Source of the DNA: an uncultured Clostridia bacterium
GTDB taxonomy: Bacteria; Bacillota; Clostridia; Christensenellales; CAG-917
Direction: 5' to 3'
DNA length: 64,000 bases
Assembly: GCA_963542015.1 (NCBI GenBank)
Contig: CAUTUX010000004.1
Span: 5,497 to 69,496 of the forward strand
Shown: piece by piece, positions 1,846-48,332 of the stretch
Numbering within the stretch: position 1 is the first letter of the stretch
Layout of the letters: the number at the start of each line of letters is the position of its first letter
Translations under genes and position numbers: made by a program
The notes under the pieces: model-generated
Database searches by the model: none
The model's input: the letters and a program-made list of their open reading frames with translations, nothing else
Told to the model about the DNA's origin: nothing

Positions 1846-2640
1846 ATGAAAAAACTATGCTTTTCAACTATTGGATCACCAGATTGGAGTCTAAAAGATA
1901 TTATTTCCACAGCTAAAGATTTGGGATACAGTGCAATAGAGGTTAGAAGTATTGCTAATGAAATTTATGCTCCAAAAATGAAGGAATTTACAAAAGACTT
2001 AAGTAAAACAAAAGATTTGATTGCAGACTCAGGAATTAAAATTGCTATGTTATCATCAAATGTTGCATTTGCAAATCATCAAGATGTAACGGCATTAAAA
2101 AGAGCAGAAGAGTATTTAAAATTAGCAGAAAAGATGGATGTTACTTTTATTAGAGTAATGTCAACAGACAAACCATATTTTGACGGCGGTGATGAAGAAC
2201 TGTGTTTAAAACAGTTTGAAGAAATAGTTAAGATGGCAAATGATACAAAAGTTACAGTCCTAATGGAAACTAACGGTATTTTTGTTGATACCAAAAAACT
2301 TGGAATATTTTTAGATCAAGTTAAAGGGAATAGTGGAGCACTTTGGGATACACATCATCCATATAGGTTTAATGATGAACAGCTGTCGACATCTATAAAG
2401 AATTTAGGTTCAAAAATTAAGTATGTGCATTTAAAAGATAGTGTTATAAATAAAGGAAAGGTTGCATATAAAATAATGGGCACTGGAGATATGCCTATTA
2501 AGAATATTGTGTCTCTACTTCAAGAAAATAATTACGACGGATATTACACGCTAGAATGGGTTAAATTGTGGGATGATACACTTGAAGATGCTGGAATTGT
2601 ATTTGCACAATATGTGCAGTATATGAACAGATTACCGTAG
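1846..2640 (+). CDS. sugar phosphate isomerase/epimerase (xylose isomerase-like TIM barrel)
   Basis: 264-aa ORF with an SD (GGAGG) 7 nt upstream. The alternating beta-alpha pattern with IEVR, FIRV, LMETNG and HLKD strands resembles the AP_endonuc_2/TIM-barrel family. The assignment rests on pattern only. Confidence 0.6.
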   Translation: MKKLCFSTIGSPDWSLKDIISTAKDLGYSAIEVRSIANEIYAPKMKEFTKDLSKTKDLIADSGIKIAMLSSNVAFANHQDVTALKRAEEYLKLAEKMDVTFIRVMSTDKPYFDGGDEELCLKQFEEIVKMANDTKVTVLMETNGIFVDTKKLGIFLDQVKGNSGALWDTHHPYRFNDEQLSTSIKNLGSKIKYVHLKDSVINKGKVAYKIMGTGDMPIKNIVSLLQENNYDGYYTLEWVKLWDDTLEDAGIVFAQYVQYMNRLP

Positions 2641-3699
2641 TAGAGTTTTTAATAATAAATCAGCGTTATTATCGATTTTTATAGGATTAGAATATCTATT
2701 ATCTATATTGTCACTTGCTTTATATAACAAGTTGCATTTTGAATTCGCACAAAATGACAGTATTTCATTTTTAAGTTTTCCATTTATTGCAAGTATTGTG
2801 GTGTAAGGAATTAAATCTTGCAATAATTCCAGATCTTTTTTACGAATATTGAGTACCACAGATGCTACTAATCTTTTTAATGTTGATAAGGTTAATCGTT
2901 TTGAAGTTAAAGTATAAAATTCATCAAGAGTTTTAAATTGTTCCTTAGCTATTTTATAATTTAAACCTTCCTTTACATTTAATATTTCATTTAGTTCATC
3001 TGCATTTTTTGAATTTAACAAATACAAAGCTAATTTCTCATACACTAAATTTACATCTTTTGTTTTATATTTAACAAATTCTGGCACATTTTCATTAATA
3101 GGCTTTAGGTTATTTCTAATTTCTGTTGATGATGCCAAATTTAAATTCCTAGCAATCGTGTATAAATTTATATCGGAAGCCATCCTTTTTATACTATTTA
3201 TATATTCGATTCCTAAAATATTGTTTCCTGTCCAAAATGTTTTATCAATATTTTTCAAACTCAATTCGCATGATTTAGCATAGCTGTATCCTAATTTTAA
3301 ATATTCTTTGATTTGTCTATTAGTTATTTCATTTTCAAAACTATCCGAGATATTTTTTAGAACACCAATATCACCTAACTCGCTTCCAAAAGCGAGGGTG
3401 TAGGTTGCAAAGATTGCAGACAATGTTCGAATTGCACCTTCTGCAAATATTTTTGCATTTGAAAGAGAATAGATTGTAGGCAATTCAAAAACAACATCAG
3501 CCCCTGCCTTAATTCCCCATTCAGCTCTTGTAAACTTATCAGCAACAGCAAGGTCACCTCGTTGAGTAAATGAACCACTTAAAATAATTGCTATTAAGTC
3601 AGGGTTTAGATCTTTTTTTATACTGTCAATTAAAAATTTATGCCCATTGTGAAATGGATTAAATTCAGCAACTAAACAAACAATCTTGTTAAAAATCAT
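2632..3699 (-). CDS. tmcAL: tRNA(Met) cytidine acetate ligase / UPF0348 nucleotidyltransferase (YlbM type)
   Basis: The N-terminus IVCLVAEFNPFHNGHKFLI carries the HxGH nucleotidyltransferase motif, followed by ILSGSFTQRGDLAV. I place the start at the internal ATG at 3699; the first 26 codons of the 381-aa ORF are not family-like. Confidence 0.75.
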   Translation of the reverse strand: MIFNKIVCLVAEFNPFHNGHKFLIDSIKKDLNPDLIAIILSGSFTQRGDLAVADKFTRAEWGIKAGADVVFELPTIYSLSNAKIFAEGAIRTLSAIFATYTLAFGSELGDIGVLKNISDSFENEITNRQIKEYLKLGYSYAKSCELSLKNIDKTFWTGNNILGIEYINSIKRMASDINLYTIARNLNLASSTEIRNNLKPINENVPEFVKYKTKDVNLVYEKLALYLLNSKNADELNEILNVKEGLNYKIAKEQFKTLDEFYTLTSKRLTLSTLKRLVASVVLNIRKKDLELLQDLIPYTTILAINGKLKNEILSFCANSKCNLLYKASDNIDNRYSNPIKIDNNADLLLKTLLR

Positions 3700-3787
3700 T
3701 ACAATAAATATATAGCGTAGCGAGTTCAATTGGCAATATAGAACATAATTAAAAAAATTCTTAAAGCAACTTAACATGAGTACTAAA

Positions 3788-3816
3788 TTGACAAAGCTAA
3801 CGGGGGGGGGTACAAT
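3788..3816 (+). promoter_or_regulatory. sigma-70-type promoter TTGACA-17-TACAAT with a G9 run inside the spacer
   Basis: TTGACA lies at 3788-3793 and TACAAT at 3811-3816, with a 17-nt spacer aagctaacggggggggg (G9 at 3802-3810). AGGAGG at 3836-3841 and ATG at 3849 follow. The ylxM-ffh promoter at 15441-15469 uses identical hexamers and spacing. Confidence 0.65.
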
Positions 3817-3848
3817 TATTGGATATTTTGACCTTAGGAGGTAAATAT

Positions 3849-6650
3849 ATGAAGAGGAGAGAAAATCACAAATTAGAATATGCGATGCTTTTAATTCTAA
3901 TAATTTTGCTTCTCGTAATACTAATACCTGTAACCGTATATGGAATTAGAAACAAACAACAGCCTTATATACCTCCTATAGAAGAAAAGATAAAAGAAAA
4001 AAATCCATATGAAGAATTGGAGAAGCTCTTTAAGTTTAGAAAGCTTGAAGATACTTATGCTATAGAAAAATATATAGGTAAGCTATCAAAAGTAACTATC
4101 CCAACAGAATACAAAGGGCTTAAGGTTAATCAAATAGATGATGAGGCATTTGCAAATGTAGATTTTTTAGAAAAGGTTGATGTATCAAATACAATTGAAG
4201 GAATTGGTAACAAAGCATTTGTTAATTGTACCAATTTAAATGAAATCACATTACAAGAAGGTCTAAAAGAAATATTATCAGATGCATTTTCTAATACTGG
4301 TCTGAGTTCGGCAAAGATTCCAAGTACAGTGAAAAAGATAGACACAAGTGCATTTAAAGAATGCCAAAATTTAACTGAAGTTACACTTGAAGAAGGATTA
4401 AAATCAATAGGTGCTGAAGCATTTTTAGGAACACCAATTAAATCAATTACAATTCCAGGAACAATACAAAATATGGGCGATAGAGTTTTTGAAGGATGCT
4501 ATAATTTGAAAAAAGTTATTTTAGGAGAGGGAATAACAGAAGTAACACCAAGATATTTTAATAGAGCTACACTAGAAGACATAACAATTCCAGGAACAGT
4601 TGAAGTAATAAGAAGTCATACATTTTATTTACTTAATTGTCTAAAAACAGTAACACTCAATAAGGGAGTGAAAAAAATAGAAGAGAGGGCATTCCTAGAA
4701 TCTGCAATTAAATCGATTACAATTCCAGGCACTGTAGAGAAAATTGAGACTTATGCATTTAGTTATTGTAAAAATCTAAAGGAAGTAGTGCTCAATGAAG
4801 GATTAAAGGAAATAGCTGCTGATGTATTCAGATACACAGCAATTGAGTCAATTACTATTCCAGGTACTGTTAAGGAAGTAGGATGGGAAGCATTTGCATT
4901 TTGCGATAATTTAAAAAAGGTAACATTAGGCGAAGGAATAAGCAGTTTTAACAGTAATTATTTTAATGAAAAATCTTTAGAAGAAATAATACTTCCAAGC
5001 ACATTAGAAACAATAGGGGATAATGCATTTGAGAATTGTAAAAAATTAAAATCAGTGGATCTAAAATATGGTTTAAAAACAATAGGGTATGGAGCCTTTA
5101 AGGGAACATCAATTGAATCAATAAGAATCCCAGGAACAGTAGAAGAAATTGGAGATGAAGTTTTTAAAGGATGTAATTTAAAAAAAGTAGTCCTAGGCGA
5201 GGGAATAAAAGAGATAAAATCAAACTATTTCAATAGAGAAACATTAGAAGATATAACAATTCCAGGAACAGTAGAAGAAATTAGAGATAATGCATTTGAG
5301 AATTGTTATAGTTTAAAAAAAGTAGAACTTCATGATGGGCTGAAAAGAATAGGTGTTGCATCATTTGCTAGGACATCACTTAAGTCAATTCTAATACCTA
5401 GTACGGTACAGGAAATAGGAACTGTTGCATTTTATGACTGTCAGAATTTAAAACAAGTAGAACTTTATGATGGATTGAGAACAATAGGAAATGGAGCATT
5501 TAGCGAAACATCAATAGAATCAATAATAATTCCTGGAACTATTACAGCTATGGGGAGTGATGTTTTTGCAGACTGTAATAATTTGAAAAAAGTAGTATTA
5601 GGAGAGGGAATAGAAGAATGTACAGATAATTATTTCAATAAACCAACATTAGAAGATATAACAATTCCAAGTACGGTAGAGAAGATAAATACTGGAGTAT
5701 TTTATGATTCCAAGAATTTAAAAAAAGTTGAACTTCATGATGGATTAAAGCAAATAGAAGATTGTTCTTTTCAATATTCATCAATTCAATCAATTATAAT
5801 TCCAAAAACCGTTGAAAAAATAGGTGCTTCTGCATTTATGGGATGCAATAGTCTAAAAGATGTAACGCTTCAAGATGGACTGAAAAGAGTAGACTATTAT
5901 GCATTTAAAGGAACATTGATAGAAACAATAAGGATTCCAGGCACAATAACATTTGAAAAATTTGGAGATAAAGTTTTCGAAGAATGTGATAATTTAAAAA
6001 AAGTAATTTTAGGAGAAGGAATAAAAGATGTTGTAGATAATTACTTTAATACATCATCATTGGAAGAAATTTCAATTCCTGGCACAGTTGAAGAAATAAA
6101 TGCCTGTACTTTTGAAGATTGCAAAAAATTAAAATCTGTAACGCTTAATGAAGGATTAAAAACAATTTGGGATAGAGCTTTTGAAGAAACATCGATCGAA
6201 TCAATTATACTTCCAAGCACAGTGGAACTTATATATGATCGTGCCTTTGCCGATTGTAAAAAATTAAACTCAGTAATATTGAATAATGGATTAAAAGAAA
6301 TAGGTAAAGGTGCTTTCAGAGGAATAGCAATTGAATCAATTAAGATTCCAGCTACTGTGGTGTATATAGGAGATTATACATTTGGTAAATGTGATAATTT
6401 AAAAGATATAATTTTAGAAGAAGGAATAAAAACAATTGGGGATTTAGCATTTGGTGATGCACCAATTGGATCAATAACAATTCCAAGCACAGTAGAAGTG
6501 ATTGAGAAAGATATATTTGGGAGTAACGACAAGTTAAAAACGATAAATTGTAAAATAAAAAAGAGCTACTATGACACACATCAGACTCAACTTTATGGAT
6601 TAAGAGACTCAGAGTTAAAGGGGCGTAAAATTAACTGGTTAAATGGTTAG
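3849..6650 (+). CDS. BspA-type leucine-rich-repeat (LRR_5-like) surface protein with an N-terminal membrane anchor
   Basis: The start is at ATG 3849, 7 nt after AGGAGG. A hydrophobic anchor (LLILIILLLVILIPVTVYG) is followed by roughly three dozen ~23-aa repeats of the type I-x-IP-x-TV-x-x-IG-x-x-AF-x-x-C-x-x-LK-x-V-x-L. Confidence 0.85.
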   Translation: MKRRENHKLEYAMLLILIILLLVILIPVTVYGIRNKQQPYIPPIEEKIKEKNPYEELEKLFKFRKLEDTYAIEKYIGKLSKVTIPTEYKGLKVNQIDDEAFANVDFLEKVDVSNTIEGIGNKAFVNCTNLNEITLQEGLKEILSDAFSNTGLSSAKIPSTVKKIDTSAFKECQNLTEVTLEEGLKSIGAEAFLGTPIKSITIPGTIQNMGDRVFEGCYNLKKVILGEGITEVTPRYFNRATLEDITIPGTVEVIRSHTFYLLNCLKTVTLNKGVKKIEERAFLESAIKSITIPGTVEKIETYAFSYCKNLKEVVLNEGLKEIAADVFRYTAIESITIPGTVKEVGWEAFAFCDNLKKVTLGEGISSFNSNYFNEKSLEEIILPSTLETIGDNAFENCKKLKSVDLKYGLKTIGYGAFKGTSIESIRIPGTVEEIGDEVFKGCNLKKVVLGEGIKEIKSNYFNRETLEDITIPGTVEEIRDNAFENCYSLKKVELHDGLKRIGVASFARTSLKSILIPSTVQEIGTVAFYDCQNLKQVELYDGLRTIGNGAFSETSIESIIIPGTITAMGSDVFADCNNLKKVVLGEGIEECTDNYFNKPTLEDITIPSTVEKINTGVFYDSKNLKKVELHDGLKQIEDCSFQYSSIQSIIIPKTVEKIGASAFMGCNSLKDVTLQDGLKRVDYYAFKGTLIETIRIPGTITFEKFGDKVFEECDNLKKVILGEGIKDVVDNYFNTSSLEEISIPGTVEEINACTFEDCKKLKSVTLNEGLKTIWDRAFEETSIESIILPSTVELIYDRAFADCKKLNSVILNNGLKEIGKGAFRGIAIESIKIPATVVYIGDYTFGKCDNLKDIILEEGIKTIGDLAFGDAPIGSITIPSTVEVIEKDIFGSNDKLKTINCKIKKSYYDTHQTQLYGLRDSELKGRKINWLNG

Positions 6651-6808
6651 CATCTAAGTATTTTTAGTAATTTTTAAATAATATATCTATAAAATTTAAA
6701 ATTTTCCATAACATCATATCTTAGGTTAAGAAGTTAAGGTTTTGATTTAGTTTGTAAAAGTATGAGGCAATAAAATATAATTAATAATATTGTTTTGAGA
6801 GGTAAATA

Positions 6809-7804
6809 ATGAAATTTCTTGATGATTTATTAAGTAGAGCAAAAGTTTTAAATAAGAAAATAGCTCTTTGTGAAGTTGAAGATGAACGTGTTGTTAGTGC
6901 TGCGGATTATTTGTCATCTAAAGGCATATGTAAAGTAGTCCTAATAGGGAATGAAGAGCAGATTCGCCAACAATTTCCAAGTTTAAAATTGAAGGATGTT
7001 GAATTCTGGGATGTTAAGAAATATGCAAAGACAGAAGATTATATAAATCTTCTTTATGAGTTGAGAAAAGCAAAAGGAGCTACAATTGAATGGGCTAGAA
7101 ATGCTGTTAATACGGATATGTTAACATTTGCAGCACTTGGTCTTAAATCGGGCGATCTTGATGGTATTGTTGCTGGTGCAGTTTTATCATCTGCAGCGGT
7201 TTCTAGAGTTGCATTTCAGATAATAAAGGCAAAGCCAGGACTAAACAGTGTTTCATCATGTTTTGTAATGGTTCCTCCGGAAGGATTTAAGGGGACAAAA
7301 GAGAAAGCAATTATTTTTTCTGATTGTGGAGTTATTCCGTATCCAACAAAAGAACAATTAGTGGATATTGCATTTGCAGCAAAAGACAGTGCTGAAAAGA
7401 TTATTCAAACAAATCCAAGAATAGCGATGTTGTCATTTTCAACCAAGGGAAGTGCTAAACATCCAGCTGTTGAACTTGTACAAGAAGCATTTGAAATGGC
7501 TAAGGCAAAAGACGAGAATTTAGTTATAGATGGAGAAATGCAATTTGATGCTGCTTTTGTTGAAAGTGTAGGAAAACAGAAGGCACCTAATAGTAAAGTT
7601 GCTGGAGAGGCAAATGTATTTATTTTCCCTAACTTAGACGCAGGAAATATAGGATATAAGATAGCTCAAAGATTGGGAAATTTCACGGCTCTTGGACCTA
7701 TTATGCAAGGCTTGGATAAACCAATAAATGATTTGTCTCGTGGATGTAATATGATGGATATAGTATATGTTGCAGCAATTACATGTCTGCAATCACAGGA
7801 GTAA
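6809..7804 (+). CDS. pta: phosphate acetyltransferase
   Basis: 331 aa with family-typical segments (DGIVAGA, SDCGV, NVFIFPNLDAGNIGYKIAQR, INDLSRG). It lies directly upstream of ackA. Confidence 0.9.
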   Translation: MKFLDDLLSRAKVLNKKIALCEVEDERVVSAADYLSSKGICKVVLIGNEEQIRQQFPSLKLKDVEFWDVKKYAKTEDYINLLYELRKAKGATIEWARNAVNTDMLTFAALGLKSGDLDGIVAGAVLSSAAVSRVAFQIIKAKPGLNSVSSCFVMVPPEGFKGTKEKAIIFSDCGVIPYPTKEQLVDIAFAAKDSAEKIIQTNPRIAMLSFSTKGSAKHPAVELVQEAFEMAKAKDENLVIDGEMQFDAAFVESVGKQKAPNSKVAGEANVFIFPNLDAGNIGYKIAQRLGNFTALGPIMQGLDKPINDLSRGCNMMDIVYVAAITCLQSQE

Positions 7805-7809
7805 GAATA

Positions 7810-9009
7810 ATGAAGATTTTAGTATGTAATGCTGGGAGCTCATCACTTAAATATCAGTTGATTGATATGTCAAATGAAAAAGTATTGGTAAAGGGCTTAT
7901 GCGAAAGAATTAATATTGATGGAAGAATTTCGCAGAAGAATATTAATGGTAAACAGTTTAAAAAAGAAGCAACAATGAAGAATCATACCGATGCAATTAA
8001 GCTTGTTATCCAGTCTATAATTGACCCCGAATTTGGGGTAATTAAAGATATAAGTGAAATTGATGCTGTAGGTCATCGTGTTCTTCATTCGGCGGAAGAT
8101 TTTAATGATTCTGTTGTTATCACTGATGAAGTTTTAAAAATATGTGAAAAAAATGTTGAATTGGGACCTTTGCATATGCCAGGTAACATTGCATGCATTA
8201 AGAGTTGTATGGAAATATTAAAAGACAAACCAATGGTTGCAGTTTTTGATACGACATTTCATTCAACCTTACCACCTAAAGCATATATGTACGGAATAAA
8301 ATATGAAGATTATGAAAAATATAGAGTTAGAAAATATGGTTTTCATGGGTCATCGCATAAATTTGTTTCTAGTGAAACAATGAAGTATTTAAAAAATGAC
8401 AAAGCAAAATTGATAATTTGTCATATTGGAAACGGCTCTTCGCTTTCTGCAGTAGACAGTGGTGTTTGTATGGATACAAGTATGGGATTTACACCGTTAG
8501 CTGGGGTTGTAATGGGAACTAGAAGTGGTGATATTGACCCAAGTGCAGTTGATTTTTTGAGAAACAAATTAAATTTATCATCTGAAAAAATGGTCGACTA
8601 CTTAAATAAAGAATGTGGTATGCTCGGCATTTCTGGAGTTAGCTCAGATATGAGAGATGTTGAAAATAAAATGTTTACAGGTGACGAAAGATGCACTTTA
8701 TCAATTGAGATGATTGGATACACAATTAAGAAATATGTAGGAGCATATTTAGCTGTTCTAAATGGAGCCGATGCAATCGTATTTACGGGTGGAATAGGTG
8801 AAAATAGTGACATTATGAGAAAGCTTGTAACAGAGAACATGACAGCATTTGGCATTGAAATTGATGAGAAGAAAAACAATGTTAAAGCGTCTGAAATAAC
8901 AGACATTTCAGGCAAAAAATCAAAGGTTAAGGTTCTCATAGTTCCAACAAATGAAGAGCTCTTAATTGCCCGTGAAACTGCTGAAAAAGTAGCAAAAATG
9001 GCAAAATAA
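7810..9009 (+). CDS. ackA: acetate kinase
   Basis: From ATG 7810 the protein starts MKILVCNAGSSSLKYQL. It also contains GHRVLH, FDTTFH, YGFHGSSH and FTGGIGENS. Confidence 0.95.
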   Translation: MKILVCNAGSSSLKYQLIDMSNEKVLVKGLCERINIDGRISQKNINGKQFKKEATMKNHTDAIKLVIQSIIDPEFGVIKDISEIDAVGHRVLHSAEDFNDSVVITDEVLKICEKNVELGPLHMPGNIACIKSCMEILKDKPMVAVFDTTFHSTLPPKAYMYGIKYEDYEKYRVRKYGFHGSSHKFVSSETMKYLKNDKAKLIICHIGNGSSLSAVDSGVCMDTSMGFTPLAGVVMGTRSGDIDPSAVDFLRNKLNLSSEKMVDYLNKECGMLGISGVSSDMRDVENKMFTGDERCTLSIEMIGYTIKKYVGAYLAVLNGADAIVFTGGIGENSDIMRKLVTENMTAFGIEIDEKKNNVKASEITDISGKKSKVKVLIVPTNEELLIARETAEKVAKMAK

Positions 9010-15440: not shown

Positions 15441-15469
15441 TTGACAAAAATTTTTAACTTGAATACAAT
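15441..15469 (+). promoter_or_regulatory. candidate promoter TTGACA-17-TACAAT for ylxM-ffh
   Basis: Perfect -35 at 15441-15446 and TACAAT at 15464-15469, with a 17-nt spacer. Confidence 0.55.
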
Positions 15470-15494: not shown

Positions 15495-15806
15495 TTGGAT
15501 AGATTTTATATTAATGAACTACACGGTATATACGGTAATTTATTAACAGAACATCAAAATGAAATGTTGTCGTTGCATTATGGTGAAGATTTATCTTTTG
15601 GTGAAATAAGCCAAATGTTTAATATCAGCAGAGCAGCGGTATTAAATGCAGTGAATAAAGCAGAGACAGCTTTAATAAAGTTTGAAAATGCTTTAAAAGT
15701 GTGGGAAACATTTAATAAAATTGATGGGGTCATTACGCAGGGTCTTAATGAAAATGCAGATACTGTGGAGTGTTTAAAAAACATTAAAAAAATATTGGAG
15801 AATTAA
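15495..15806 (+). CDS. ylxM: UPF0122/YlxM putative HTH protein of the ffh operon
   Basis: TTG start 7 nt after GAGG. The pattern LLTEHQNEMLSLHYGEDLSFGEIS is sigma-70 region-4-like. It holds the conserved position between ftsY and ffh. Confidence 0.75.
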   Translation: MDRFYINELHGIYGNLLTEHQNEMLSLHYGEDLSFGEISQMFNISRAAVLNAVNKAETALIKFENALKVWETFNKIDGVITQGLNENADTVECLKNIKKILEN

Positions 15807-20750: not shown

Positions 20751-22937
20751 ATGAAAAAGAGAGTTCTCTCAATAGTAATAACTGTATTGGTTTTGTTACT
20801 TGCAATGTTTTCATTTGCTGCATGTGGTGAAATCGATGAAAATACAAATTTAGTCAAAAATGGAGCTTTTGAGGATTTTAATGACAGTAAGTTTGATAAC
20901 TGGACTGTTTTTGATGAATCGAAAGGGACTTATGAAAAAGTTTCTCCTGCTGAAAAAGAAAATAATGCAAAAAGTGATGGGTTTAATTTCGGTAAAGGAA
21001 TTTTAAAATTAAAAAATGACAAAACTGAAAATTTTGTATCCATCTCTCAGACAATTAAAGTAAAAAAAGATCAAGTATATAAATTGTCTATTAGTTGGCG
21101 TTATGAAGTTGAATATGATAAGCCTGCTAAAACTACCAAGGGATATCTTCAATTAAATGACGGTGCAACAAAAATATCGCATAAAGATGGTATAAATGAG
21201 AAGTGGAACACCACTGAAGTTTATATTAAATCCAAGTCAAGAGACTTAAAGTTGGAAGTTCTTTTAGGGACAAAAGACGCCAAAGAAAAAGGTAATTTGT
21301 ATGTTGATAATATTTCCTTAACTGCAGTTAAAAATCCTCCAGCAGGAACAACAGTTACAACTGTTGCAAAAACAAGCAGAGGAAGTGCTAAATACAATAT
21401 TAAAAGTCAGTCAGGCACAATTTTAATTGTCTTTGCTTCATTGATCACAGTTGCATTGGTAATTGCAGGTTCTGTTCTTGCTAGAAGAGCATACAGTAAA
21501 AAAGATGTATTTGAAGATTTTGCAACGGCAAAGATAGCAAAAAATAATCCTGCAATGGCAGCACATTTAGATAAATATCAATTCATCTACATTGGCGTCA
21601 TAATTGCAGTTTGTGCACTTTTATTAAGATTTATTTTGCTTTTTACAACTTACGGATTTGGTAAGGAAATGACTAGTACAATAGAAACTGCAAGATCTAT
21701 AGCAAAGACTAGTGATTTAACAAAATTCTATTCAAACAACAAAAACAGTACAGCGGCTCCAGGATTTTTATATCTCCTATCTATATTGGGAGCATTTGGA
21801 ATAAAGAGCAATAGTGATTTATCAATCATGATAAGGTTTATAAATATCTTATTTGATATTGGTATAGTATTAACGCTCTATTTTTATGGTAGAAAATATG
21901 TTGGTAACAAATTATCAACAATATATTCGTCATTATATGCTTTGTTACCAATTGCTTTCATAATGTCAGCAATGTCAAATACTTTCTTAAGTGTACTTAT
22001 TGCATTCATATTGATGTTGACATTATTGTTACTTGAAAAAAAATATATTGCTTTTTATGCAATGTTACCTTTAGCAATTATATTTGATTTGAGAGTTATG
22101 GCAGCAGTACCAGTGCTAGCAGTTGTAATGGTATTTGATTATATTAAAGACGATGCTTCAATTGCAAAATTCACAAAGAATAGAGCAGTAATGGTGTTCG
22201 GAATCTTGGTAACTTTAGTAATGCTTTACTTGTTAACATTACCAATAGCAATTACTCAGATTAAAGGCAAAGATGCATTCTACGGATACAAAGCAATTGC
22301 AAATGTAATGATAAATAATAAGATATTTGTTTTGAACGGATTAAATCTTTATGCCTTAGCTGGAATGAATGGGCAAGAAGTACTTAAGAGTACAGTAATA
22401 CTTAATATAATATTTATTATAGTATTTGAGATATTCGTTATATCTATGTTTATAGGTAAAAAGAATAAGTTGGATGTACTTTTACTGATTGCACTAACAT
22501 ATTCAGTTATGGGAATCCTCACAATGAAAGTAGACTACACATATATTGTAATTCCAATTGCAATTCTTATGTTACATACAATGATTGTAGGTGATAAGAG
22601 ATTATATTTCATTAATGCTGTATTTATGTTCTTGTCAGTAGTAAACCTAACGCAGATGATTAATGTTTCACAGTTTATTGGTGGTAAGACCAGTGCAATT
22701 GCACAAAATCAATTGGTTGCATTTGAAGAAAGAGACCCATTCTTAATTTTCTTTTCTGTGGTTGCACTGTTAACATTGCTATACTATATGTATGTTTCAT
22801 ACTCAATTACAGTAAGTAAGAAAGTAGTTGATATAAAACCAATGAACGAAAATCTTTTCAAATATATTAAAAATAAATTTGTAATGCTAAATAGATATTT
22901 CAAAGAAAAGAAAATAGCTAAACAAGCTGCTAAATAA
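20751..22937 (+). CDS. lipoprotein-signal protein with an N-terminal CBM-like beta-sandwich domain fused to a polytopic GT-C/PMT-like membrane domain
   Basis: The signal plus lipobox-like FAAC at residues 21-24 is followed by NLVKNGAFEDF...NW, typical of CBM4/9-like modules. Roughly a dozen or more hydrophobic helices follow. The function is inferred from architecture only. Confidence 0.45.
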   Translation: MKKRVLSIVITVLVLLLAMFSFAACGEIDENTNLVKNGAFEDFNDSKFDNWTVFDESKGTYEKVSPAEKENNAKSDGFNFGKGILKLKNDKTENFVSISQTIKVKKDQVYKLSISWRYEVEYDKPAKTTKGYLQLNDGATKISHKDGINEKWNTTEVYIKSKSRDLKLEVLLGTKDAKEKGNLYVDNISLTAVKNPPAGTTVTTVAKTSRGSAKYNIKSQSGTILIVFASLITVALVIAGSVLARRAYSKKDVFEDFATAKIAKNNPAMAAHLDKYQFIYIGVIIAVCALLLRFILLFTTYGFGKEMTSTIETARSIAKTSDLTKFYSNNKNSTAAPGFLYLLSILGAFGIKSNSDLSIMIRFINILFDIGIVLTLYFYGRKYVGNKLSTIYSSLYALLPIAFIMSAMSNTFLSVLIAFILMLTLLLLEKKYIAFYAMLPLAIIFDLRVMAAVPVLAVVMVFDYIKDDASIAKFTKNRAVMVFGILVTLVMLYLLTLPIAITQIKGKDAFYGYKAIANVMINNKIFVLNGLNLYALAGMNGQEVLKSTVILNIIFIIVFEIFVISMFIGKKNKLDVLLLIALTYSVMGILTMKVDYTYIVIPIAILMLHTMIVGDKRLYFINAVFMFLSVVNLTQMINVSQFIGGKTSAIAQNQLVAFEERDPFLIFFSVVALLTLLYYMYVSYSITVSKKVVDIKPMNENLFKYIKNKFVMLNRYFKEKKIAKQAAK

Positions 22938-44586: not shown

Positions 44587-48332
<3,746 letters not shown>

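Follow-up and report, generated by a model that had tools for sequence, protein, structure and literature searches.

Probable promoter and product of the LRR gene

The window analysed here is a stretch of 64,000 nucleotides (nt) of contig CAUTUX010000004.1 from an uncultured Clostridia bacterium. It carries a gene for a 933-aa BspA-type leucine-rich repeat (LRR) protein, and the probable promoter directly 5' of this gene contains a run of nine guanines (G9) between its -35 and -10 hexamers (Table 1). The length of this G tract was found to differ among related strains. The tract, its promoter and the gene are referred to below as the LRR locus.

The layout of positions 3788-3851 was TTGACA-AAGCTAAC-GGGGGGGGG-TACAAT-(19 nt)-AGGAGG-(7 nt)-ATG, with 32 nt between the promoter and the ATG start. 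The coordinates that a preliminary description of this DNA had given for both hexamers, the G9 run, the 17-nt spacer and the ATG were exact. A promoter consensus scan gave 11 of 12 consensus matches for the two hexamers, the top-ranked site in 2500-8000. The pattern TTGACA-N17-TACAAT occurred in two copies in the window, whereas shuffled sequence gave an expectation of 0.02. The other copy, with identical hexamers and spacing, was located where the preliminary description had placed it, preceding a YlxM/UPF0122 open reading frame (ORF; 15495-15806) and then ffh. A SigA-type sigma factor gene was also present in the window. The TTGACA/TACAAT pair, as judged from the sequence, is very probably the sigma-A promoter of the LRR gene.

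Table 1. Features of the LRR locus and its surroundings (window coordinates)
Feature	Position	Strand	Basis
-35 hexamer TTGACA	3788-3793	+	Sequence read, consensus promoter scan
Promoter spacer, 17 nt (AAGCTAAC + G9)	3794-3810	+	Sequence read
G9 homopolymer, hypermutable element	3802-3810	no strand	Length differs among 17 contigs
-10 hexamer TACAAT	3811-3816	+	Sequence read, consensus promoter scan
Ribosome-binding site AGGAGG, 7 nt 5' of ATG	3836-3841	+	Sequence read
ATG of LRR_5 gene	3849	+	Sequence read
933-aa BspA-type LRR_5 protein gene	3849-6650	+	Pfam LRR_5, E 2.7e-235
Promoter + gene cassette, 2,961 bp, absent from L001	3775-6735	no strand	L001 alignment
HIGH_NTase1 (TmcAL/YlbM-like) gene, divergent neighbour	2632-3699	-	Pfam PF05636, E 7.9e-80
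pta, downstream neighbour, own promoter region, kept in empty-site strain L001	6809-7804	+	Pfam, L001 alignment
Comparison promoter, identical hexamers and 17-nt spacing, 5' of ylxM-ffh	15441-15469	+	Pattern search

The window has a G+C content of 30.8%, and its G/C runs were short: 66 runs of length 4 and two of length 5 were counted, none of 6-8 and a single one of 9. The G9 tract was the sole G/C run longer than 5 in the 64 kb, and these run-length counts bore out the earlier claim that no comparable run exists elsewhere in the window. Under an order-0 model, 0.01 runs of at least 9 would be expected, and runs of at least 5 were depleted (3 observed against 11 expected). A total of 26 related loci (95 kb) were fetched, and G/C runs of at least 6 in them were exclusively promoter tracts. 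No other poly-G promoter and no other LRR_5 gene was found in the window. Runs of 8-9 A were common (14 of A8 or longer, in addition to two T8). The GC skew was strongly positive on the plus strand, which carries most genes, across the whole window.

The 933-aa protein matched LRR_5 (PF13306) in eight stretches with 767.9 bits against a Pfam gathering score cut-off of 27.7, and its gene showed internal repeats with a period of approximately 135 nt. Hydropathy gave a single strongly hydrophobic segment at residues 12-30, read as an N-terminal transmembrane helix. The Pfam match and this segment agree with the membrane-anchored BspA-type LRR protein that had been described before. Among PDB sequences, the protein matched 4gt6 ('Cell surface protein'), 4cp6 (pneumococcal PcpA) and 6mlx (Treponema pallidum TpLRR). 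By homology, the product would be a protein of the surface-exposed or host-interaction type.

The ribosome-binding site region (3835-3847, TAGGAGGTAAATA) was 92% complementary to 3966-3978, located within the coding region 118 nt downstream. In the mRNA fold predicted for 3823-3995 (z = -2.37), the ribosome-binding site was paired with that stretch, which suggests possible sequestration of the site.

Recovery of related loci

Related loci were fetched with the exact protein of the divergent neighbour TmcAL, which was present on seven contigs, and with another TmcAL allele belonging to the same 90% cluster. Further loci were obtained with N-terminal fragments of the LRR protein and with one protein-guided metagenome scan. 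A search of Joint Genome Institute (JGI) metagenome contigs for the exact promoter pattern, with the gap allowed to vary, produced 0 hits, and the protein-guided second scan of metagenome contigs produced two loci. Exact look-ups of the LRR protein and of an AP-endonuclease protein of the window returned no record, the exact pta look-up returned one short contig that ended before the promoter, and a scan of a genome collection returned a metagenome-assembled genome of a sister species (TmcAL 88% identical) as its sole result. Overall, the homologous promoter was found on 16 further independent metagenome contigs, or 17 contigs with the window, from at least five assembly series, and each contig contributed one consensus tract length. 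One related contig was derived from a Human Microbiome Project sample. The sister species was represented by L007 and L013-L016, and a paralogue with 40% identity was found in another context (L017).

Length of the G tract among strains

The tract occurred in five states among the 17 contigs: G8 in one, G9 in two, G10 in ten, G12 in two and the interrupted form GGAG7 in two. In the context between tmcAL and pta, G8 was found in L026, G9 in the window and L018, G10 in L002, L020, L021, L022, L023, L024 and L010 (= L025), G12 in L005 and L019, and GGAG7 in L003 and L004. In a second genomic context the tract was G10 in all three contigs (L009, L011 and L012). The corresponding distances between the -35 and -10 hexamers were 16 nt for G8, 17 nt for G9, 18 nt for G10 and 20 nt for G12, with 18 nt the commonest. 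The 17-nt spacing of the preliminary description was therefore confirmed in the window, but the state it had called optimal is a minority one and most strains carry G10.

The DNA on both sides of the tract was 96-99.9% identical among contigs of the same species. When 12 sequences were aligned over 2 kb (window 2700-4700), the indels consisted of the tract and one single-base deletion (L010), which left the tract as the sole recurrent indel. The four A7/T7 runs of this alignment (at 3613, 3751, 3997 and 4671) were constant in length. Tracts of different length were also found on nearly identical backgrounds: L018 (G9) and L019 (G12) differed at 3 of 1972 flanking sites, and the window (G9) and L005 (G12) at 6 of 1575. 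The left half of the spacer was polymorphic (AAGCTAAC / AAACTAAC / AAACAAAC / AAGCTAAT), and several tract lengths were borne by the same haplotype, namely G9, G10, G12 and GGAG7 by AAGCTAAC and G8, G9, G10 and G12 by AAACTAAC.

Given this length variation, its recurrence on different haplotypes and the invariance of neighbouring runs and flanks, the tract is a specific and recurrent length-mutation hotspot of the LRR locus. The comparison across related genomes, which the preliminary description had proposed as a check, returned differing lengths and thus favours slippage. The candidate phase-variation switch itself is well supported by the strain comparison, which falls short of a demonstration.

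Conservation of the promoter

The -35 hexamer was TTGACA in all contigs of the same species except L018 (TGGACA), ATGACA in the sister species and TTGACA in L017. The -10 hexamer varied as well. Other strains had TAAAAT, TAGAAT and GACAAT, the sister species had TAACAT and L017 had TAAGAT; the T of the -10 was lost by replacement in L019. At the third -10 position three different bases were found among strains and never the consensus T. GGAGG was present in all copies of the species and the sister species, and L017 carried GTGGGG.

Between the species, the sister species and L017, the conserved blocks were TAAA-(T/A)TGACAAA, TA..AT and the start region; the remaining intergenic DNA was unalignable. 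The sister species has the promoter ATGACA-AACTAAAGAGGTAGTGA-TAACAT, with a fixed 17-nt spacer that is G-rich at the position of the tract (GAGGTAGTGA) and non-repetitive. The L017 promoter was TTGACA-AATCACAAC-GGGGAGGGGG-TAAGAT, with a 19-nt spacing and a nearly homopolymeric spacer (G4AG5). This promoter lies at L017 1385-1512 in a NAPRTase/AddB context. After the LRR_5 gene there comes another, short LRR_5 ORF, and the gene may be a split one.

Conservation of the hexamers in the sister species and in L017 supports the view that both are functional elements and that 17 nt may be the 'designed' spacing of the family. With three comparison points, the pure poly-G spacer either arose in this lineage or is old and decaying by interruption. 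Within the species, the promoter core (3788-3848 without the tract) had 9 variable sites of 52, compared to 2 of 88 in the adjacent intergenic DNA (Fisher p = 0.002) and 65 of 1000 in tmcAL (p = 0.008).

Population behaviour of the promoter and gene cassette

The promoter and the LRR gene were missing together from one strain. The match of L001 was 99.6% to window 3000-3774 and 96.3% to 6736-7200, with these stretches joined directly at L001 3926. The segment missing in between comprised the promoter and the LRR gene together with 85 nt of its 3' flank. The TmcAL protein of L001 was identical to that of the window, and tmcAL and pta are now direct divergent neighbours there. The deletion edges showed a TTAA microhomology (...GCAACTTAA|CATGAG... 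and ...GAAGTTAA|GGTTTTGA). Because the LRR gene also occupies this site in the sister species, it is ancestral there, and the empty site of L001 represents a deletion. A mobile-element reading of the cassette gained no support: no transposase or recombinase accompanied the cassette, and its edges had just the TTAA microhomology. No signature of horizontal transfer was found in the cassette, whose GC content (0.29-0.31) equals that of its flanks.

Three independent assemblies (L009 1396-3285, L011 1396-2033 and L012 77-577) carried the second genomic context, in which 1.9 kb or more of the LRR gene was present together with the promoter at 94-96% identity. The homology starts at window 3745, and these copies are preceded by a GDSL-lipase gene and an ORF of 94 aa. 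Both genomic contexts were found in one metagenome (ODUH01). The second-context copy represents a paralogue or else an alternative site of insertion.

The LRR genes of the window and L002 (269-3070) had a synonymous divergence (dS) of 0.080, a ratio of nonsynonymous to synonymous divergence (dN/dS) of 0.48 and 92.5% aa identity. The dS of the adjacent tmcAL in the same strain pair was 0.009, which implies that alleles of the cassette have been replaced by recombination. The dN/dS of tmcAL was 0.19 (window against L018). The LRR gene encoded 933 aa in most strains, 466 aa in L021 and 280 aa in the sister species (L013 1501-2343). In L026 (807-3597), where the tract was G8, a short deletion at about window 4505-4520 divided the gene into parts of 233 and 716 aa. 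Taken together, the deletion of the cassette, the split and length alleles and the fast divergence would fit fluctuating or diversifying selection on a surface antigen. Such population features, like the type of gene, are characteristic of contingency loci.

Neighbouring genes and other observations in the window

The surroundings of the LRR locus are an ordinary chromosomal context. The divergent tmcAL lies on one side and pta together with ackA on the 3' side, and the window also encodes smc, ftsY, ffh, ppdK and dnaG. Rfam and tRNA scans found nothing near the LRR locus. Involvement of the tract in the promoter of the divergent tmcAL was excluded because L001 keeps the same 75 nt 5' of tmcAL and lacks the tract. 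Inversion of the promoter was likewise rejected: the best flanking inverted repeat was 19 nt at 74% complementarity, the orientation was the same in 17 of 17 contigs, and no recombinase gene was found among the neighbours of the LRR locus.

Elsewhere in the window, a 728-aa ORF (20751-22937) and a 242-aa ORF (44587-45315) had no Pfam match at E ≤ 0.001. A GH2 beta-galactosidase gene (45312-48332) was split into two ORFs by one in-frame TGA (46296-46298), past which the frame continues; the TGA falls where members of the family usually carry Gly. Since all other ORFs of the window are normal with translation table 11, this TGA is most likely a nonsense mutation or the mark of a pseudogene rather than recoding.

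Proposed mechanism and alternative explanations

Promoters of the sigma-70/sigma-A type generally require a spacer of 17 ± 1 nt. At the LRR locus, slipped-strand mispairing during replication would add or remove guanines in the 3' half of the spacer, and the number of guanines would set how far apart the -35 and -10 hexamers lie, with altered contact of the RNA polymerase holoenzyme to both. The spacer of 17 nt (G9, as in the window) would be the strongest, spacers of 16 and 18 nt weaker and one of 20 nt essentially off. The outcome would be heritable and reversible high, intermediate or off levels of the surface protein.

The tract is probably a 'volume-control' contingency locus of the porA/tp0126 type that drives the BspA-like LRR gene. 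In loci of this type the homopolymer is uninterrupted over at least about 8 nt and its length varies far beyond that of its surroundings among close strains; the tract at the LRR locus is G9 in the window and G8-G12 in relatives, with five states in 17 contigs. We infer that the hexamers form a working promoter, that the tract changes length frequently within a clone and, from the spacer rule and the precedent of porA and tp0126, that expression tracks the spacer length. The recurrence of tract lengths on two spacer haplotypes would lend the change within a clone no more than indirect support. A wider proposal, put forward tentatively and with less than even confidence, is that of an evolving contingency system in which a poly-G knob sits on a self-contained promoter and BspA-LRR cassette that has been gained, lost, exchanged and copied to a second site, with the sister species hard-wired at 17 nt.

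Several points weigh against a volume control. With one consensus length per contig, the data represent between-strain variation. The dominance of G10 (18 nt; 10 of 17 contigs) could mean a fairly stable preferred state, and with one interruption (GGAG7) among about 17 copies, the tract is not clearly purer than under neutral decay. The extreme lengths come partly from contigs of low coverage (L005 with G12 at 2.9× and L026 with G8 at 4.75×) and call for caution, and Illumina assemblies may miscount long G runs by approximately one base. The last two points would also favour the explanation that the tract has a fixed length and its variation stems from sequencing or assembly error, as Illumina platforms tend to err at long G runs. 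Such an artefact is very improbable. The G9 and G12 tracts of L018 and L019 sit on contigs of 95 kb and 102 kb, the window has G9 while ten contigs from several pipelines concur on G10, GGAG7 is identical in two independent assemblies (L003 and L004), and the other homopolymers in the 2-kb alignment are constant in length. The concordance on G10, the repeated GGAG7 and the long contigs with G9 and G12 make a pure sequencing artefact unlikely.

The inactivating changes also count against a volume control, as the TGGACA hexamer, the loss of the -10 T, the split gene and the deletion are equally compatible with a dispensable, drifting gene. The tract could be hypermutable but functionally neutral, even if its slippage were to alter expression through the spacer length, with the LRR gene dispensable and decaying and the variation a product of drift rather than of an evolved switch. 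The cassette deletion in L001, the split gene in L026, the 466-aa allele in L021, the mutated -35 of L018 and the lost -10 T of L019 all point in this direction, as do the excess of variable sites in the promoter core over the adjacent intergenic DNA (9/52 against 2/88) and the LRR dN/dS of 0.48. This main alternative is nevertheless unlikely, given that most contigs retain the full 933-aa ORF with a dN/dS well below 1, that 15 of 17 copies, from two contexts, have kept a pure tract of G8-G12 despite no other G/C run above 5, and that the gene is conserved at its site in the sister species. The least probable of the alternatives is a G-rich spacer that serves as a recognition or structural element for a regulator, in which control would be exerted by a protein and the length variation would be tolerated. 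The sister species (GAGGTAGTGA) and L017 (GGGGAGGGGG) share a G-rich stretch at this spacer position, and the poly-G promoters of the tpr genes in T. pallidum are co-regulated by a CRP homologue (PMC7864442). A sequence-specific site, on the other hand, is unlikely to tolerate lengths of 8-12 nt and an internal G to A change, the sequence of the sister species is just loosely similar, and the neighbours are tmcAL, pta and ackA with no adjacent regulator gene.

Comparison with known systems

In porA of Neisseria meningitidis, the length of a poly-G tract between the -35 and -10 sets graded high, medium or no expression (PMC7864442). The LRR locus resembles porA in having a G homopolymer in the sigma-70-type promoter spacer of a surface-protein gene. 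It differs in that porA belongs to a Gram-negative pathogen, encodes a porin and has experimentally shown switching and expression, whereas the LRR locus belongs to an uncultured Clostridia commensal, encodes an LRR_5 protein and is known from between-strain length variation alone. In T. pallidum, the poly-G of tp0126 (an OmpW homologue) varies in length within and among isolates, and transcription from both tp0126 and porA is optimal at 17 nt (PMC7864442). The LRR locus shares with tp0126 the poly-G position between the hexamers, the 17-nt optimum, here presumed, and the variable length. The genome of the spirochaete is GC-rich and poly-G is common in it, whereas the LRR tract is unique in approximately 64 kb of 31% GC.

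The vlp genes of Mycoplasma hyorhinis, a low-GC, Firmicutes-related organism, have a promoter-spacer poly-A that exerts ON/OFF control of variable surface proteins. In contrast to this poly-A in a multigene lipoprotein family, the LRR locus has poly-G, with a pure tract in two contexts and an interrupted G4AG5 in the distant paralogue L017. BspA-like LRR proteins under phase variation by simple sequence repeats were described from metagenomic data in Candidatus Mycoplasma girerdii (PMC5476646). Most of the repeats there are CA dinucleotides, which produce frameshifts within or close to the coding sequence, whereas the homopolymer of the LRR locus lies in a promoter spacer and would act on transcription. 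In Clostridioides difficile, surface and signalling genes are phase-varied by invertible promoters (cwpV, the flagellar switch, cmrRST and pdcB/pdcC) (PMC11868660). These depend on site-specific inversion between inverted repeats, and the LRR locus has neither such repeats nor an inverted orientation.

The mechanism is thus already known, and what is new is the host, an uncultured human-associated member of the Clostridia. No comparable repeat-based promoter switch in Clostridia was found in the literature searched. Repeat-mediated phase variation has been documented mainly in pathogens, and a review asks whether this reflects biology or database bias (PMC11868660).

Significance

The LRR locus is a testable candidate, with natural spacers of 16, 17, 18 and 20 nt and the sister species as a 'locked' control. 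For annotation, some strains with an intact ORF may nevertheless not express the LRR gene, a change in the tract moves the start chosen by gene callers (as in the 958-aa call in L019), and the locus is a hotspot of allele exchange. The tract could also serve as a marker of strain-level heterogeneity in surface-protein expression that is readable from metagenomic reads. If the proposed control is true, the porA-type mechanism extends to commensal Firmicutes. If, in addition, both copies share one genome, they would form a small multi-locus repertoire of phase-variable adhesins, and such a poly-G repertoire would add to inversion, the sole well-documented form of phase variation in the group.

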